From NCBI GenBank assembly GCA_016839805.1, contig JAEOTO010000003.1:1-64000 (forward strand): a DNA stretch of 64,000 nt, written 5' to 3'. The notes below the pieces were generated by a model. That model worked only from the letters and a program-made list of their open reading frames with translations, was not told the origin of the DNA and made no database searches. Source of the DNA: Candidatus Hermodarchaeota archaeon. Its GTDB lineage: Archaea; Asgardarchaeota; Hermodarchaeia; Hermodarchaeales; Hermodarchaeaceae. Positions 1 through 8,017 of this stretch are shown piece by piece. Every line of letters begins with the position of its first letter. Position 1 is the stretch's first letter. Made by a program: the position numbers and the translations under genes.

Positions 1-906
1 GTTGGCGTAGAGGTCGCGTCGGAGGTCGACGTCGCATTTGCGGACGGCTTCGACGATGGCGTCGTCGAGGGGTTGGGCTTCGACGCCGATGGCGCCGGGG
101 TTGAAGAGGACTTCGGGTCCTTGGAAGCGTTCGGCACCCACGGTGAGGGTGCTGCCGTCGGGGAGCATGTATTTCTTTTCCATGCCGGCGACTTTTTCGG
201 CGAGTTTGGTTTCTTTTTCGGGTTCGAGTGCGACGTAGCAGAGTTTTTCTTTGATGTCGCGGACGATTTCGCGTTCGGCGGTGGTGGTCAGTGAGTAGCC
301 CCGTTGTCGGAGCAGTCGTCGGAGGTATTCGGTGATGTCGCGGCCGGCTAAGTCGACGCGGCTGATGGCGTGGGTTAAGGCGAAGCCTTCATAGATGGGC
401 ACAATGTGGGTGACGCCGTCGCCGGAGTCGATGACGAGGCCGGTGGTCCGTCCGGAGGCATAGAGGCTGAGGACGGCTTGCATGGCGACGTAGATTGCTG
501 GAATGTTGAAGGTCTCGAACATGATCTCGGCCATCTTTTCACGATTGGCCCGAGGGTTCAAGGGGGCTTCGGTGAGCAGGATGGGGTGTTCGGTGGGGTC
601 GATGCGTAAGTCGTTGTAGAAGGTGTAGTGCCAGATTTTTTCCATGGCGGGCCAGTCGGTGATTTGGCCGTGGGCGATGGGGTAGACGAGTTTGAGGACT
701 CCTCGCAGTTGGAGGGCTTCTTCGCCGATGTAGTATTCGCGGGTGTAGTGTTCGACGTCAGTCATGTACGCTGGATATTTGGGGTAGCCGATGAGGGTTG
801 GAAAGACGCTGCGTGGCTGGTCTTCACCGGCGTAGCCGTTTTTGCTAAGGCCGGTGCCGTTGTCAACCACCAAGGGTTTGGCGGTGACCATTTCTTCTTC
901 TGCCAT
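1..906 (-). CDS. Actin (Lokiactin-type, eukaryote-like); 3' end lies beyond the window edge
   Basis: Not in the ORF track. Manual translation from ATG at 906 gives 302 open codons: [43 protein letters not shown]...YPIAHG...[25 protein letters not shown]...[25 protein letters not shown]...DLAGRDIT...[21 protein letters not shown]...[13 protein letters not shown], all hallmark actin motifs. Confidence 0.98.
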
Positions 907-1054
907 TGATTGGTTCATCTCCTTCGAAGGTTTTTTTTAAAATGGTGAATTTTTGGCTGGAATACTTTCCCAGGCTGGTCTTTGTATTCCCAAAGAAAGA
1001 ACTTCGAATTTCGTTTATAAAACTTCAGGCACCTTTTGGCGTCATCTCTATCAA

Positions 1055-1071
1055 CGTTATCACTGATAGCG
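1055..1071. promoter_or_regulatory. Imperfect inverted repeat (possible operator or leader hairpin) between actin and the divergent regulator
   Basis: CGTTATCA-C-TGATAGCG, 7/8 match, flanked by TCAAC/GTTGA; TATA-like TTTATAT nearby at about 1124-1130. Confidence 0.3.
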
Positions 1072-1218
1072 ATGTTGAATTAAATCGCAAAGGCGTCTAG
1101 GGGAAGCCTTTGGGGACGAGTGATTTATATGCCGGGCTTCGCAGATATTTTTTTGTAGCAGCCCGATTTCTGGGAACGCTTACTTGAACGAGAGCATTGT
1201 ATCGTATGGTGGCACAGG

Positions 1219-1884
1219 GTGTCTGTGGGCAAAGTGAAACGCGTCATTGGTGGTGTCGAGGCACGCAAAATTATCCTCCGCCAACTCCTCGATGGGCCAC
1301 AGACCGGCATCGTGTTGCGGGCCGCGATTGCCCGCCGGGTGAAAAAACCCGTGGACGAAGTATCGGATGCCATGCTCTACTTTAATCTGCAACACCTGGA
1401 GAACAATGGGCTCATCGAACGTTTTCGCGATGGGAAAGAAAAAGCCGCCCGGATTGTGCCCTTTCAAATCCAAAGTGTACGTCGGGTGTTAGATGTGGAC
1501 GCCCCCGTGGCGTACATTGGGGCGATTGGAGACGATCCTGGAGTGTTGCACGCGGTCCCCAAACGAATTCGGGCGGAAACGACGTTTCGTCCCGAAACAT
1601 ATCATTATTTTGTCGAAGAAGCCACACGGCGCCGACTCAGCGGGCTTACCGCGGACCGGATTTTACATGAGGTGCCCTCGGACATCTTCTACCATGATTT
1701 AGGGAAGATGTATGAATTGGTCTATAATCTCTCCCAGGAGCTCATCCGGGAACATGCAATCCTCATCGATGTGACCGGGGGCGGCAAGGTCTGTGCCCTA
1801 GCCTTATATTCGCTTGCTATCGAATTTGATTTGCCTTGTGTGTTTGTCACCGAGATGGGCACCGTGACCTGGATGCGCAGCTAA
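1219..1884 (+). CDS. Transcriptional regulator with N-terminal winged HTH and C-terminal CARF (Csa3-like) domain
   Basis: wHTH: 'VSDAMLYFNLQHLENNGLIE'. C-terminal CARF signature 'ILIDVTGGGKVCALALYSLA' (D-x-T-G-G-x-K). Confidence 0.7.
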   Translation: MSVGKVKRVIGGVEARKIILRQLLDGPQTGIVLRAAIARRVKKPVDEVSDAMLYFNLQHLENNGLIERFRDGKEKAARIVPFQIQSVRRVLDVDAPVAYIGAIGDDPGVLHAVPKRIRAETTFRPETYHYFVEEATRRRLSGLTADRILHEVPSDIFYHDLGKMYELVYNLSQELIREHAILIDVTGGGKVCALALYSLAIEFDLPCVFVTEMGTVTWMRS

Positions 1885-1898
1885 TCGAGTTCATCGAT

Positions 1899-4169
1899 TT
1901 ATGATGTTGTGTTGTTGGAGAAGGAATAAGGAAAGTCAATTTGCATGGGAACTATAATGCCTTTTTGTCGCAAATTGAAAATCGCTTCGAAAATCTCAAT
2001 GCTTTGGTCCTTGCGATCTCCTTGGCATTTATCGAGTAAGTCTCTTATTAGAAACGAGCTTTTATTGACGCTCAGTGTTTTGGCCTGATTATAAAGCGCT
2101 CGTTCTGATGTGGAAAGAGAGACCTGTTTGGTTCGACCATCTTGAATGATATGAGGTAGTCGAATGGTAATGAAGAGGTACTCGTTGACAAGATCGATGG
2201 CTTCGTTAAAGATGTTCAGGCGTCCCGCCCAATTTTCGAGGACATCGGCATATTGCTCCTCAAAGTGTGACGTTAATTGTTCCAGTCGAGTATGCAATTG
2301 GCCACTGGGAGGTTGACTGAAAATTATGGCATTTCGCATGAATTTTCCATCATGTACCATGATGTGAAAGTCTCGGTAGGTGATTTGATGCAGGGTCGAA
2401 GTATCATCCTGGTCCGTGGGTGATTGTTCTGATTCGGTGAGACTGAAACCAAACGTGGCAATAGCTTGAATCAGGCCAGTGACTAAATTCGCTCTCATTT
2501 TTTTGTCCACGATAGGATCTAACAGACAGAGTCCGGTTTCCTTGTGAATAAGTAAAACGCGTTTGATTTTTTCAATATCGTAAAACGAGTCAGCGAGTGC
2601 TTGAAGTTGTTGATGGCGAATTTTCTGTTGTGGAAGGAGGATTCGTTGTCGATAGAAGAGTAGGGATGGGAGGAGAAGAACGAGGAATATGATCACGAAC
2701 CAGAACAGGAACCCGCCGATGGTAGCTGTTATTGGAATTGGAACCGTACAAAAAACGTGCCACAAGCCATCTTCGGCATCATGAATAATGAGCCGGTTCT
2801 CATTGATGGTCCAAGCCGAATTGGGAATTGTATTACGCGTAATGGAGTGTATCATCCATTCCTGTGGAAAAGTAAGCAATATGGTTTGGTTATCAACACC
2901 TTCAGGGAAATCAATAATTAGTGTTAGGAGCCAGTTCACACCACTTTGTACCGATGAAATATGCATATTCGAATAAACTGTACTGGAATCTTGAAATAAA
3001 GCAGACCAAATAACATCAAACTCAACAACCCATTGATATAGATCAGACCAAGCCACAGTCACGATAAATTCGCGTGTACTGTTAGAAGTAGCGAGAGGGG
3101 GCTGGAGTGGACCACTATCCCACCCACCTGCATTCAGCGGAGTAAAGTTCGTGACGGTGGCGCCATTTACTTGCATATTAATGTCAGAAGGAGAGATGTT
3201 TTGATTTTCGGGAAGAATAGAGACATTGAGAAACAGGTCACGCGATCGGTATCTCCACGAATTGATATAACCATAGCAGTCTCCTTCGTCTTCTTCATCG
3301 GGAATGACATCATCTCTACAATATACCCAGTTGATCCGGGTGTCGTCATCAAAAGCCCGGGCAATGCCTAGATAGAATGTGTTGGAATAGGTTATCGTTG
3401 GATCGAGCAGTAATTCGCTTTCATTTGTATCGATCCAGAACCAGTTCTCTTGACCCGGTTGGAGGGTTGGCGATATGGGTACTTCTGTCCAGTCTGTGAG
3501 GGGTGCAGAGGTATTTAAGAAGGTGCTGGCTTCTGTTCCGGGTTGAGCCATGTAAACGCGATACCGTAAAATTCCTTTTGATTCTCCGCGAAGGTATATC
3601 CAGAACCCATCAACCCGGATCGGTTCGGTGCCATTGATGTGGAAGCCCATATAGGAGTATTCATTAGTCCAGATGTAATCCTCATAGGGGGAGTTGGTAG
3701 GGTTATAGTCTTCGACAGATAGCTGCAGTGGTTGAGGTTGAATTTGTGTGAAATTTAACGTCTCCCGGGTCATTGAGCCTTGAAGAAGATTAACTGAGAA
3801 GGGGGTTTGGCTTTTCCAATTGGACCAACTGAAATGTTGCTTCCATGTCATGAGAGCTAAAAGATCGCTCTCGGTATCTTGCATTCGTGATTTGGAAATG
3901 AGAAATTGCCAGGAGTTCATTGAGGTCGAAGGATATGGCAAAAGAGCGTGGTTAGAACTCGTCGTGCACATAAATGGAGTATTGTCTAAGAGCAGCAGGG
4001 TTCCGCCAAATACTAATCCAGTTAGCGCAATTGCAAGGACTATTATATGAAGACCCGAGGCTAAACGGGTGCCCTTCATATCGACTTCTGCCTCCCAGAC
4101 ACGTATATGTAATAGTGATGTGAATTCTGTAACTAACGTGGCTTCGCTTGTGGAAATCGGTAGCATCAA
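1899..4169 (-). CDS. Asgard-type membrane protein: N-terminal TM/signal, large extracellular domain, TM, cytoplasmic longin-like domain and C-terminal wHTH-like segment (likely start ATG at 4079)
   Basis: Hydrophobic runs 'IIVLAIALTGLVFGGTLLLL' and 'FLFWFVIIFLVLLLPSLLFY'. Longin-like pattern 'VLLIHKETGLCL...NLVTGLIQAIATF...ITYRDFHIMV...FEEQYADVLENWAG'. Confidence 0.65.
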   Translation of the reverse strand: MMLPISTSEATLVTEFTSLLHIRVWEAEVDMKGTRLASGLHIIVLAIALTGLVFGGTLLLLDNTPFMCTTSSNHALLPYPSTSMNSWQFLISKSRMQDTESDLLALMTWKQHFSWSNWKSQTPFSVNLLQGSMTRETLNFTQIQPQPLQLSVEDYNPTNSPYEDYIWTNEYSYMGFHINGTEPIRVDGFWIYLRGESKGILRYRVYMAQPGTEASTFLNTSAPLTDWTEVPISPTLQPGQENWFWIDTNESELLLDPTITYSNTFYLGIARAFDDDTRINWVYCRDDVIPDEEDEGDCYGYINSWRYRSRDLFLNVSILPENQNISPSDINMQVNGATVTNFTPLNAGGWDSGPLQPPLATSNSTREFIVTVAWSDLYQWVVEFDVIWSALFQDSSTVYSNMHISSVQSGVNWLLTLIIDFPEGVDNQTILLTFPQEWMIHSITRNTIPNSAWTINENRLIIHDAEDGLWHVFCTVPIPITATIGGFLFWFVIIFLVLLLPSLLFYRQRILLPQQKIRHQQLQALADSFYDIEKIKRVLLIHKETGLCLLDPIVDKKMRANLVTGLIQAIATFGFSLTESEQSPTDQDDTSTLHQITYRDFHIMVHDGKFMRNAIIFSQPPSGQLHTRLEQLTSHFEEQYADVLENWAGRLNIFNEAIDLVNEYLFITIRLPHIIQDGRTKQVSLSTSERALYNQAKTLSVNKSSFLIRDLLDKCQGDRKDQSIEIFEAIFNLRQKGIIVPMQIDFPYSFSNNTTS

Positions 4170-4316: not shown

Positions 4317-5033
4317 TTATGAGTTAAATGCAGAGGAATAGGAGATAAATGCACCATTACGAAGAATGGGAGTTAAATTATAGCGATTGGTTTGTGCACA
4401 AAAGCGGATATCATCTTTGTAACCTGCTTGAACTAAGATCGTGCCATGGTGACTCACTAAGAGTTCACGGCTAATATCTCCAAGGTCAGCGTAGCTGGGG
4501 GGGTCGTCGGGAAATTGTAGTCGACTGATGATATGATGGGAGGTAAAATCATCTTCAGCAGCATAGCCCCGTATGCTGCCAGCAGAAATTACTGAGACCG
4601 GTTGTTGGAGTTTCTTGGCGAGGGTTCGAGCGGTTGTTGCCACGTGTTCAATATTCAGAAATGCTCCCACGAGAATGGTCGCAGTTTCGGGTGGGGTGCC
4701 CAGGGTGCGAGTGAAATTACTGGTCGTGAGGATGATGGGACGTCCGCGAATGCGGTCGGTGAGGAAGCTGCGTGGAGAATTCCCATAATCGAATCCGGCT
4801 GGTGGGTGTGCCGCACGTTCGCCAGCCAGGAACCCGTTGGGAAAGTGGTAAATCCGTTCACGGGCTTCTTCCACGGTGGTCACGGGAATTATTTGGGAGG
4901 CACCATTTGCTAACGCTGTAACGATGGTACTGCTTGCACGGAGTACGTCAACCAGTATAATCACATGCTGTTGAGCCAAAGCCTGTGCCAGTGCGTCGGG
5001 ACCCGACCCGTGAGAAACCGATATTGATGACAT
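4317..5033 (-). CDS. comB: 2-phosphosulfolactate phosphatase family (ComB)
   Basis: VDVLRASSTI, GER, FDYGNSP, LTTSNFT, GAFLN and AEDD motifs. Confidence 0.9.
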   Translation of the reverse strand: MSSISVSHGSGPDALAQALAQQHVIILVDVLRASSTIVTALANGASQIIPVTTVEEARERIYHFPNGFLAGERAAHPPAGFDYGNSPRSFLTDRIRGRPIILTTSNFTRTLGTPPETATILVGAFLNIEHVATTARTLAKKLQQPVSVISAGSIRGYAAEDDFTSHHIISRLQFPDDPPSYADLGDISRELLVSHHGTILVQAGYKDDIRFCAQTNRYNLTPILRNGAFISYSSAFNS

Positions 5034-5061
5034 GATGATATTGGCTCCAGGCTAGATTGGT

Positions 5062-5700
5062 TTAAGGTTTCGGAGTTTCCATCGCCTGCAACTGGCGTCG
5101 GTAGTACAGTACCCGATACACTACTGTAAGATGGCTCAGGATTGCGATGAGTAGTAACCCAATATACGGAAATGCGGGGTGAACTACCACCAAGAGGCTG
5201 GTTACTACGAGGATGAAGAGGCGTTCTGAGCGGGCGGCAATTCCTACATCAGTATCCTTGACACCTGCTGCCTGTGCTCGACTTCGAGCATAACTGACTA
5301 GCAAACTGCCTGAGATTGCTACTGTCACCCACCACCAACGGGGACCCCACTGCGGAAAGGGATTGGGCAGAAACAGAAATGGGAACAATATTACAACATC
5401 TGCGATGCGGTCCAGCATTGAGTCTAAAAACCCGCCGGCTAGGGTTGCTCGTTGAGTTTGACGGGCGACTTCACCATCGACGCCATCAAGAAGCCCTGCA
5501 CAGAACACAAGCAATCCGTAAACGAAATACCATTGGTATAGTGTCAGTAAAACTGCACTAAGTGAAGCCACGAAGAAAGTCAGGATACTGATTGCATTGG
5601 GCGAAATACGGAGGCGAATAAATCCGCGAGCAATGACGCGAACCAGGGGACCGAACACCCGTCGGAGTCGATAAGGAGACGGCATGATCATCGCATCCAT
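5062..5700 (-). CDS. CDP-alcohol phosphatidyltransferase (archaetidylinositol-phosphate synthase-like)
   Basis: DGVDGEVAR...GGFLDSMLDRIAD signature; LVSYARSRA; RSERL. Confidence 0.9.
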   Translation of the reverse strand: MDAMIMPSPYRLRRVFGPLVRVIARGFIRLRISPNAISILTFFVASLSAVLLTLYQWYFVYGLLVFCAGLLDGVDGEVARQTQRATLAGGFLDSMLDRIADVVILFPFLFLPNPFPQWGPRWWWVTVAISGSLLVSYARSRAQAAGVKDTDVGIAARSERLFILVVTSLLVVVHPAFPYIGLLLIAILSHLTVVYRVLYYRRQLQAMETPKP

Positions 5701-6714
5701 TCAGGTGGAGTGGAGCACATTCCCTTTAGCATCTAGCACGGCTCCGGTTAAGTCGGTATTGACAGGAACATGAGTGTCTGGCAAGGTGATGCACCGAGAT
5801 AACACGGAATTCGAGTATACTATTGTATGGGGCCCAAGGGTTGTAGCATTGTCAATGAGACAATTATCACCGATATGTACACGGGGACCTAAGAGGACCG
5901 GACCCTCAATCTTTGCCTCTTTCCCTAAAGTTAAAGTCGCACTTTGGAGGGGACCTTCCATCGATGTCCCCGGAGGTAGATAGGTACCTGGAGGTTGAGG
6001 CTGCGGAGGCCATCCCTCAGCGAGAAGATAGGCATTCAAAGCCACGAGGCTTGTAACAGAATCAACATCACACCATACACGATCAGTAATCGGAATACCC
6101 TGAAGAGGTTGATCCTGCATCAACCACTGCTGTAAGAGAGTAAAGACTGTGGACGCAGAATCGGTAGCACTTCGAATAGTGCTCTCAAAAAATCGAGTAG
6201 TCGCTCGGAGAGCCGGTAGCCCTGGATAATACCCTGCAAGGTAGACAGATGATTGGGTGAGGGCCGAAACTAGCTCCGAGGTATCAAGCTGAAGAAGTGT
6301 ACCAGGTCCATGAGAAAAAGGATCAAAGAGGAGAGCTACTTCCGCAGAAGTAGTTGTCAAGAGGCGGAGATTTTCTGCAGAGATATAGAGGTCTCCAGGT
6401 AAGAGGACGCAAGGAGTAGTTTTGGATAAGTATGGCAACACTGATTGAAATGATGCTAAAGGACCCTGTTGCCAGTTAGGTGTCTCGATGGGGATAAGAT
6501 CGCCATGAAGTGATAACGTAGTGAGGTAATCCTGCATCGAGTCTCTCGCGTATCCTAAAGTGACATAAATCTCAGTAAATCTGGCAGCATCGACGGCAGC
6601 GAGTAGATAATCTAACAGGGGACGATTGGCAACGGGGAGAAGGGATTTTGGGTGCTGATCAGTGAGTGGTACAAGGCGCTTGCCACTACCACTCGTCAGG
6701 ATCACTACTTGCAA
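5701..6714 (-). CDS. NDP-sugar pyrophosphorylase/nucleotidyltransferase with C-terminal left-handed beta-helix
   Basis: ILTSGSGKRLVPLT..HPKSLLPVANRP, WCDVD and hexapeptide repeats. TTG at 6714 follows a GAGGT SD (ORF track start 6753). Confidence 0.8.
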   Translation of the reverse strand: MQVVILTSGSGKRLVPLTDQHPKSLLPVANRPLLDYLLAAVDAARFTEIYVTLGYARDSMQDYLTTLSLHGDLIPIETPNWQQGPLASFQSVLPYLSKTTPCVLLPGDLYISAENLRLLTTTSAEVALLFDPFSHGPGTLLQLDTSELVSALTQSSVYLAGYYPGLPALRATTRFFESTIRSATDSASTVFTLLQQWLMQDQPLQGIPITDRVWCDVDSVTSLVALNAYLLAEGWPPQPQPPGTYLPPGTSMEGPLQSATLTLGKEAKIEGPVLLGPRVHIGDNCLIDNATTLGPHTIVYSNSVLSRCITLPDTHVPVNTDLTGAVLDAKGNVLHST

Positions 6715-6777
6715 TGAGAGACCTCGAACAGGTTTTAGGCAAGGAATACCCACTACTCTAGCGGTGGCAACTCAAAA

Positions 6778-7422
6778 ATGGTTAGGCGTTATTCGATAAA
6801 TGCAAAAAACCTGAATCTAGACCTTATTCACGAAGCAGCACAGCGGATACGCATGGGAGGAATCATCATCCTTCCTACAGATACTGCTTATGGCTTAACA
6901 GGGAATCCCACTGATCCCATCGCAGTTCAACGCATTATAAGTGTCAAAAAACGAACAAGCAAACCAGGAATGCCACTTTTGGTGAAAAATTTAGCCCAAG
7001 CCCACACTCTGGTGAAATTATCAAAGACCGCACAAGACCTAGCCACTCAGTTTTGGCCCGGAGCCCTGACACTCATTGCACCGAGTCTACACTCCTTTCC
7101 TCCTGGTATTCTTGGTCCTCAAAACTCGCTAGCCATTCGAGTACCCGATCATCCCGTGACCTTAGCTGTAATCCAGGCAACTGGTTTTGCCATTATCGGC
7201 ACCAGCGCAAATACATCCGATACTCCGAGTCCACGTACTGCTGATGCTGCGGAAGCTAATATCGGTCAACACGTAGATTTCATCCTTGATGCAGGATCCA
7301 CCCAGCATACTGCTGATTCCACAATCGTTGATTGTACACGAAGTCCACCGGAAATTATCCGTGAAGGCGCAATACCGGCAACTAGACTGCAATCCTGGTT
7401 CTCATTAAAGGACCTCGACTAA
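6778..7422 (+). CDS. sua5: Threonylcarbamoyl-AMP synthase (TsaC/Sua5/YrdC; short form)
   Basis: PTDTAYGL, KKR, FWPGALT, IRVPDHP and TSAN motifs. Confidence 0.95.
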   Translation: MVRRYSINAKNLNLDLIHEAAQRIRMGGIIILPTDTAYGLTGNPTDPIAVQRIISVKKRTSKPGMPLLVKNLAQAHTLVKLSKTAQDLATQFWPGALTLIAPSLHSFPPGILGPQNSLAIRVPDHPVTLAVIQATGFAIIGTSANTSDTPSPRTADAAEANIGQHVDFILDAGSTQHTADSTIVDCTRSPPEIIREGAIPATRLQSWFSLKDLD

Positions 7423-7477
7423 TTATAGCCAGAGATGAAGTGCTTCCTGAAAACTTTAAATCGGAAGTGCACATCCT

Positions 7478-8017
7478 TTGAGCCGTATGCTATCGGTTAC
7501 TGATAATTTTAATTTGTTGTTATCCTGTCGACGCTTCCAAGAAGCCGAGAGCTGTCAAGAGCTGCGCCGGATTATGGATGATGAGCCAACCTTGGGAACT
7601 TTGGAATGGTGTAAACTCACGGGGATATCTTGTCTTGTAGTAGGGAAAATTGATAGTGATGCCCATCAATTTGTGACCCGCCTTGGTCAAATTGTGAAAA
7701 AGATGCCTTGGATTGTTCAGGATTTATTGAAAATCCATGCCATTGACTTGATTGTTGATAGCACTATGGATGCCATTCGAGCCGGTAGCAAAAAACTCGC
7801 AAAGAAGATGACAAAAACTACTTCATTTCGCGTGAATCTGAATCGCCGAGACACAGATTTAGATCGCAAAGAGTTACTGCATGAAGTAGCCATTCAATTT
7901 CCAGGGAAGGTGGATTTAGAAGACTACGAATTTGTAGTAGCTGTTGAGATGCTCGGACCGGTCACTGGATTGGCACTTCTCCGTGAAGAGGAGATTGTCA
8001 CTCTGCGTCGGCTTTAA
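7478..8017 (+). CDS. THUMP-domain RNA-binding protein (Tan1-like)
   Basis: 'SFRVNLNRRDT...GKVDLEDYEFVVAVEMLG' THUMP C-terminus. Confidence 0.8.
   Translation: MSRMLSVTDNFNLLLSCRRFQEAESCQELRRIMDDEPTLGTLEWCKLTGISCLVVGKIDSDAHQFVTRLGQIVKKMPWIVQDLLKIHAIDLIVDSTMDAIRAGSKKLAKKMTKTTSFRVNLNRRDTDLDRKELLHEVAIQFPGKVDLEDYEFVVAVEMLGPVTGLALLREEEIVTLRRL

Follow-up and report, generated by a model that had tools for sequence, protein, structure and literature searches.

A winged-helix CARF protein as a candidate regulator of the main actin gene in Hermodarchaeota and other Asgard archaea

What would a CARF domain, a sensor module of CRISPR defence systems, be doing beside the actin gene of an archaeon in whose genome searches find no CRISPR system? 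This question is raised by the first 1,884 nucleotides (nt) of a 64,000-nt stretch of a Candidatus Hermodarchaeota genome (contig JAEOTO010000003.1 of GenBank assembly GCA_016839805.1; the whole stretch is called the window here), in which actin and a protein with a winged helix-turn-helix (wHTH) domain followed by a CARF domain are encoded head-to-head. A sequence-only reading of the window had proposed that the second gene may control the first in response to a nucleotide second messenger, with the cyclic oligoadenylates (cOA) of type III CRISPR as the known ligands of CARF, and so link immunity or stress signalling to cell shape. Our analysis supports the proposed control and speaks against the proposed signal: we lean towards a homodimeric wHTH-CARF factor that binds a palindrome between the two genes (1043-1074) and sets actin transcription. 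The genome is designated G000 (2.31 Mb, 87% complete), and we number Asgard families (f), other genomes (G), loci (L) and contigs (C) where they need to be told apart. A profile of the regulator was searched against 400 Asgard genomes, 135 of which match it, and the 124 genomes with an actin-type regulator are those counted below; gene neighbourhoods were extracted and actin was located by tblastn.

The protein is almost certainly a transcription factor with a CARF fold. General sequence profiles alone support its two domains weakly (16.8 bits for PadR, 12.9 bits for Csa3), and a phmmer search against Protein Data Bank (PDB) sequences gives no match; the assignment is borne out by structure and by a dedicated family profile. 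In an AlphaFold 2 model built from 18 relatives, with a confidence score (pLDDT) of 82, the N-terminal part superposes on winged helices, and residues 94-221 adopt the Rossmann-like alpha/beta fold of CARF, with Z scores of 12.9 to 1xmx, 12.8 to 8bao (Can2), 12.5 to 8z4i (Cdn1), 11.9 to 6tug (Csm6) and 11.5 to 6wxw (Card1) and root-mean-square deviations (rmsd) of 2.3-3.0 over 115-121 residues; the matched set includes VC1899 and 7bdv, the rmsd being 2.3-2.6 for 1xmx, 8bao, 8z4i, 6tug and 7bdv, and Foldseek returns the same CARF proteins for this part (E 1e-4). The PADLOC profile CARF_m5--CARF (PDLC01987) matches amino acids (aa) 13-219 over its positions 9-195 of 195 (E 2.1e-42, 143 bits), and a search of the whole of G000 with it finds this single gene (E 1.1e-41). 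Thus both the domain call of the sequence-only reading and its observation that the domain order is the reverse of that in Csa3 hold. Distant actin-linked proteins match the same profile with E 3e-20 to 8e-60, and one linked to cas10 does so with E 6e-44. In databases, members of the family are named hypothetical, HTH or PadR-family proteins.

Conserved residues are found in both halves of the protein. Among 24 diverse members, N56 of the recognition helix is invariant and D184 of CARF motif II nearly so, and D184, T/S186 and G188 are kept over 14 families despite overall identities of 22-42%. Hermodarchaeia carry the full D-V-T-G-G-G-K, where cas10-linked sisters have T-G-G/S-T-K and Thorarchaeal members have replaced the Lys/Arg by Pro; the motif I loop, which lacks the usual Ser/Thr, falls opposite GGLG in the alignment with those sisters. 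The CARF domain is predicted to form a symmetric homodimer (ipSAE 0.57 against 0.08 for the best control; in calibration, 20 of 30 known homodimers attained the mark, as did 1 of 23 monomers), with a contact agreement of 100% and pLDDT of at least 88. Its interface would comprise residues 185, 188-201 and 209-219 and use the loop and helix after motif II, as is canonical for CARF, and the passing score may reflect memory of solved CARF dimers.

The neighbouring gene is the sole canonical actin of G000, which also has two distant ARP-like (actin-fold) genes of 27-30% identity. Among solved structures its best relatives are 9wc4, the 'HC1 actin' of an Asgard archaeon (E 1e-152), and eukaryotic beta-actin (E 1e-125), and the gene is truncated by the contig start. 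A longer reading frame, 1-918, is available; because the ATG at 918 is missing in one close relative, we take the ATG at 906 as the conserved start, and the spacer is therefore the 312 nt that the sequence-only reading had given. The last 73 aligned residues of the partial actin (window 1-219) recur with 100% identity at the end of another contig (C32:40059-40277); C32 probably joins C9 at actin and carries its 3' end, the gene having been split by an assembly break.

Association with actin is an old feature of the regulator and extends well beyond this genome. The pair is retained in 11 of the 14 Asgard families that have the regulator. It is head-to-head in ten, namely Hermodarchaeia, two Baldrarchaeia families, f2, f3, f14 (Freyarchaeum), f26, f27 (with genomes of 1.3-1.4 Mb), f30 and f31 (Thorarchaeota), and in tandem, with the regulator just upstream of actin, in f15 (Helarchaeales); the two genes are unlinked in f13, f16 and f17. 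Over this range, regulator identity falls to 22-42%, whereas that of actin holds at 67-87%. Within about 5 kb of the regulator in 18 representative loci, actin is the commonest neighbour (15 loci, besides the window itself) and CDP-alcohol phosphotransferase the next (8 loci). A maximum-likelihood tree places all 34 actin-type proteins on one side of a branch with support 96/91 and recovers the taxonomic families as monophyletic, which fits vertical descent, so that the actin-linked clade looks like a vertically inherited branch of CARF_m5. Since unlinked f13 is sister to linked f14, the separations of actin and regulator appear to be secondary.

Features of the divergent locus (positions in the window; a dot marks features without a strand)
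Feature	Position	Strand	Basis or remark
Actin (canonical, Lokiactin-type), 5' 302 codons	1..906	-	Pfam Actin E 3e-95
Divergent intergenic region, 312 nt	907..1218	.	alignment of 10 Hermodarchaeia loci
Actin ribosome-binding site GGAG	919..922	-	within block 918-930, invariant in 10 loci
Conserved block with GGAATAC (959-965) and GTATTCC (984-990)	955..992	.	between actin TATA-like box and start
Putative actin TATA-like box TTTATAAA	1014..1021	-	TTTATAAA or TTTTTAAA in 10 loci
Candidate operator palindrome	1043..1074	.	11-nt arms 1043-1053 and 1064-1074; 10-nt spacer
Inverted repeat, 17 nt, one mismatched pair	1055..1071	.	inner part of the larger, better conserved palindrome
Putative regulator B recognition element (BRE)-like GACGAG (1115-1120) and TATA-like TTTATATG (1124-1131)	1115..1131	+	
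Regulator ribosome-binding site GGTGG	1208..1212	+	conserved, 7 nt 5' of start
wHTH-CARF regulator gene, 221 aa, CARF_m5 member	1219..1884	+	GTG start (ATG in relatives)
Winged helix-turn-helix domain, aa 12-92	1252..1494	+	Z 9.6-9.7, rmsd 1.7 to PadR and RosR
Recognition helix, aa 50-62	1366-1404	+	invariant SDAxLYFNLQxLE
CARF domain, aa 94-221	1498..1881	+	structural superposition
CARF motif I GAIGDDP (G101-P107)	1519-1539	+	Gly-rich loop after strand 1
CARF motif II DVTGGGK (D184-K190)	1768-1788	+	fits [DN]-x-[ST]-x-G-x-[KR] after strand 4

The spacer holds a candidate operator at which such a factor could act on both genes. The two arms of the palindrome, CATCTCTATCA and TGATAGcGATG, match at 10 of 11 positions; the element is kept in all ten aligned Hermodarchaeia loci and, with up to one mismatch allowed, is unique in G000. 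It is upstream of both TATA-like boxes and overlaps neither, being 21 bp away from that of actin and 49 bp away from that of the regulator. The inverted repeat pointed out by the sequence-only reading is real, but it is only the inner part of this palindrome; it has one near-match elsewhere in G000 at 2 mismatches and marginal support across families (39 of 500 shuffles as good). That reading had likewise recognised a TATA-like box where we infer two, one for each gene, and the block from GACGAG to CATTTATATGC on the regulator side is invariant in the ten loci.

The most telling observation on the target is that the half-site of the palindrome follows the actin promoter. We scored the sum of best word matches against shuffled sequence (400 or 500 shuffles), and in the spacers of 11 other families this sum is 93, against 85.0 +/- 2.1, with none of 500 shuffles as good. 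In f13, f16 and f17, whose actin and regulator genes are unlinked, the half-site is enriched upstream of actin (50 of 55, against 42.8 +/- 1.4, a score that none of 400 shuffles equals), but the region upstream of the regulator shows no such enrichment (389 of 400 shuffles do as well). Nor is there enrichment in nine actin promoters of lineages that lack an actin-type regulator, six of whose genomes have no CARF_m5 member by profile (78 of 99, against 75.5 +/- 1.7; 47 of 400 shuffles as good). Several families have two half-sites in inverted orientation, their starts 16 or 25 nt apart, as a dimeric protein would lead one to expect. That the motif keeps to the actin promoter, and is found together with the regulator, is the best available evidence, still indirect, that actin is the target. 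Together with retention of the pair in 11 families, it lends support to the control of actin that had been proposed from adjacency in a single genome, and we consider actin to be, quite probably, the main target of the regulator.

In the mechanism that these observations suggest, a regulator homodimer would bind the palindrome between the two divergent core promoters and would thereby set the transcription of the only canonical actin gene, perhaps together with that of the regulator gene itself. The regulator may well respond to a small nucleotide-like ligand, since the CARF pocket motifs of the Hermodarchaeal protein are preserved in canonical form; in this organism that ligand would not be a cOA made by Cas10. 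Activation, or dual control, seems somewhat more likely than repression, because the position of the palindrome resembles that of the Csa3a operator discussed below.

The relatives of the regulator offer a view of where it may have come from. In f20, all eight genomes with a partial match to the regulator also have Cas10, on the same contig in four (G182, G195, G241 and G278). In G182, a 214-aa CARF_m5 protein stands head-to-head with cas10, 242 nt apart (L081:5593-8789), and the cas10 operon is type III-D-like, with Cas5_IIId/Csx10 and several Csm3 genes; the arrangement is Csa3-like, with the domain order reversed. A Thermoproteota metagenome-assembled genome has a more distant CARF_m5 relative between a HerA/NurA pair, cas2 and a Piwi-domain (Argonaute) gene (L107:8001-13037), within a cas1/cas2/cas4/cas6 island that includes another CARF gene. 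G114 (f13) has three CARF_m5 hits, one actin-type (C3:426170), one free-standing (C1:94643) and one (C4:16433) at a distance of about 3.5 kb from a match to the Cas10 palm; a single genome can therefore hold an actin-type copy as well as one that is apparently CRISPR-linked. As sister and distant relatives adjoin cas10 or cas genes, the actin-linked clade looks like a re-used CRISPR regulator.

Such an ancestry makes it sensible to ask whether the CARF domain still senses a cOA, supplied by type III CRISPR or by another cyclase, so that infection or stress would alter actin transcription. The canonical fold with an intact motif II would permit this, the f20 sisters share the length and architecture of the regulator, the Thermoproteota relatives sit among cas genes, and Cas10 does occur in some genomes with the actin-type protein (4 of 5 in f13, 5 of 6 in f14 and 2 of 4 in f27). 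Against it, none of the 19 Hermodarchaeia genomes has Cas10 by any of three models (Cmr2, Csm1 and the palm domain of Cas10), and searches of G000 found no Cas1, RAMP, SMODS, DAC or GGDEF and, with a script of our own, no CRISPR array, which extends to the genome what the sequence-only reading had noted for the window. Neither an oligonucleotide cyclase nor a dinucleotide cyclase is detectable in G000. A 24-bit Csm1 match at C33:16795 was rejected as Cas10, as it covers the N-terminal 150 positions only and has an internal stop. Across the phylum, Cas10 is found in 25 of the 124 genomes with an actin-type regulator (20%) and in 71 of all 400 (18%), so genomes with Cas10 do not carry the regulator more often than others; G020, G022, G300, G319 and G368, closed or near-complete, have the regulator without Cas10, and G114 keeps a separate CARF_m5 hit near its Cas10 palm match. 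We therefore regard cOA sensing as improbable and consider it unlikely that type III immunity is coupled to cell shape here; a CRISPR-independent ligand, or none, is more likely. The second of these options, an actin transcription factor whose CARF domain is a dimerisation module only and whose control comes from protein level, accords with the failure to find a cyclase, with the Pro of the Thorarchaeal clade and with a predicted interface that shares the loop and helix of the pocket, such that conservation there can be structural. Yet retention of D184, T/S186 and G188 at such low identities, together with the motif II that Hermodarchaeia share with cas10-linked sisters, argues for more than dimerisation, and RtcR is a precedent for CRISPR-independent CARF sensing (PMC10159003). 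We hold the dimerisation-only account to be unlikely, if less so than cOA sensing. Because Hermodarchaea keep the pocket motifs of their cas10-linked sisters while Thorarchaea have lost the basic residue, we find the case for and against ligand control of any kind to be evenly balanced.

The proposed target has its own competitor, namely that adjacency to actin is inherited synteny, with the regulator controlling itself or downstream genes and the motif serving another factor. A block of genes for a ComB-like phosphatase, a CDP-alcohol phosphotransferase, a nucleotidyltransferase and Sua5 is likewise found with the regulator in 5-8 of the 18 loci, and in f13, f16 and f17, where actin has moved away, this block has stayed next to the regulator. 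These two facts weigh against actin as the target, and others join them. Three of the nine supposedly regulator-less controls do have CARF_m5 hits, if only divergent or CRISPR-type ones; the regulator-less lineages may form a separate clade; the motif tests compare related, hence non-independent, lineages; and the motif may be an element of the actin promoter to which a different factor binds. Moreover, a 14-nt weight matrix made from the half-sites of Baldrarchaeia, f26, f14, f27 and f31 scores no site of 8 bits or more in the spacer of the window, from which it follows that the Hermodarchaeal operator has diverged and that similarity across classes rests on a word of 10-11 nt. As to the signal, G000 is 87% complete, so the absence of a cyclase is unproven for this genome alone, and the Thorarchaeal loss of the basic motif II residue means that ligand binding may not be general. 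The synteny account must itself contend with the persistence of actin adjacency in families that no longer have the downstream block there (f26, f27, f30, f31 and f15), with downstream genes that are convergent with the regulator and not divergent from it, and with a motif that is absent upstream of unlinked regulators and not enriched at the actin promoters of regulator-less lineages. We consider it doubtful, a little less so than cOA sensing, and retain the homodimeric actin regulator as our preferred reading. Its fuller evolutionary form, in which a CRISPR regulator of early Asgard archaea was re-used to sense an endogenous, Cas10-independent nucleotide or RNA-derived signal and to couple it to transcription of the main actin gene, is one that we put forward tentatively.

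Comparison with known systems helps to define what is distinctive about this protein. Csa3, like the regulator, is a transcription factor that pairs CARF with a winged helix and is dimeric (as predicted here), and the CARF domain superposes on that of Csa3 (PDB 6wxq) with Z 9.4. Csa3a of Sulfolobales has a palindromic operator 12 bp upstream of the BRE/TATA of its divergently placed target (PMC8699464), as compared with 21 bp upstream of the actin TATA-like box here. The two differ in order, CARF preceding wHTH in Csa3; in sequence, the regulator scoring 12.9 bits on TIGR01884 against a cut-off of 60.2; and in context, Csa3 being CRISPR-associated, whereas the regulator lies in a genome in which no CRISPR-Cas is found and has a cytoskeletal neighbour and presumed target. 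To PadR the likeness is that of a generic winged helix, the N-terminal domain superposing on RosR as well as on PadR; the protein reaches 16.8 bits on Pfam PadR (PF03551) against a gathering cut-off of 27, and PadR proteins lack a CARF domain and use a C-terminal helix for dimerisation. The CARF_m5 profile covers both CRISPR-linked and actin-linked proteins, the latter forming a branch of their own (96/91) found mostly in genomes without Cas10.

RtcR is a bacterial CARF-AAA+-HTH sigma-54 activator of an RNA repair operon. It resembles the regulator in using CARF outside CRISPR immunity to control a housekeeping operon, and differs in its AAA+ domain and sigma-54 dependence, the 221-aa regulator consisting of wHTH and CARF only, with no AAA+ match. 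The ligand proposed for RtcR is tRNA halves ending in a 2',3'-cyclic phosphate (PMC10159003). In Thorarchaeota (G319, f31; L077:4962-7979), the gene immediately after the regulator, and overlapping it, encodes an RNase III domain (Pfam E 1e-10), and an HD-domain gene lies further on; the RNase III neighbour may hint at an RNA-derived ligand, and no RNase III-domain gene stands beside the regulator in the window.

Other elements of the locus and of the genome were considered as well. The block between the actin TATA-like box and start is nearly invariant in the ten Hermodarchaeia loci, and a control word taken from it is not enriched in other families (490 of 500 shuffles as good). It was rejected as an RNA hairpin of the actin 5' untranslated region, since it folds no better than shuffled sequence (z 0.22) and its arms are confined to Hermodarchaeia; a hairpin at 1088-1112 was dismissed because it is not conserved in close relatives. 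Two further operator candidates in G000, C30:1101 and C46:55588, have 3-4 mismatches, the latter inside an open reading frame of 473 aa, and were taken as chance; half-site near-matches in G000 number 56, not far from the roughly estimated 37 or so, and give no sign of a larger regulon. A single strict cross-class matrix was abandoned in favour of the word-match shuffle tests when it left the window site unscored at 8 bits.

Downstream, the minus-strand gene at 1899-4169 encodes a predicted membrane protein of 756 aa, convergent with the regulator and without a Pfam match, with relatives of 726-731 aa in other Hermodarchaeia and none at the Baldrarchaeia locus. In the window, the ComB-like phosphatase, CDP-alcohol phosphotransferase, nucleotidyltransferase, Sua5/YciO and THUMP block spans 4317-8017, and its synteny is unusually long-range for class-level distances. 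A contig labelled 'Candidatus Deferrimicrobium sp.', a bacterium (L058, DATKTP010000170.1), has an Asgard-type actin (82% identical) in tandem with a Helarchaeales-type regulator and is probably a mis-binned Asgard contig.

Our findings bear on how the cytoskeleton genes of archaea may be controlled. In a full-text literature search, outside which the presumed CARF_m5-defining paper fell, Lokiactin or Asgard actin was linked neither to CARF nor to a specific regulator, and the family name CARF_m5 went unmentioned. The protein would be a CARF-wHTH transcription factor of reversed domain order, from an already catalogued family, that no longer depends on CRISPR and is tied to the main actin gene. 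With a regulator candidate adjoining actin in at least eleven Asgard families, there is a possible dedicated switch of archaeal actin expression, and a defined 32-bp candidate operator with which to approach it. Recombinant protein and synthetic DNA suffice for testing, and culture of the organism is not needed. That the sensor domain is present where the usual source of its ligand is missing points to an endogenous signal, and the case would be one of a defence-system sensor module turned to the control of a housekeeping gene. If the tentative evolutionary reading is true, it would be a second use of CARF sensing independent of CRISPR, after RtcR, and, for eukaryote-like cytoskeleton genes of archaea, the first regulator that is both dedicated and ligand-gated.

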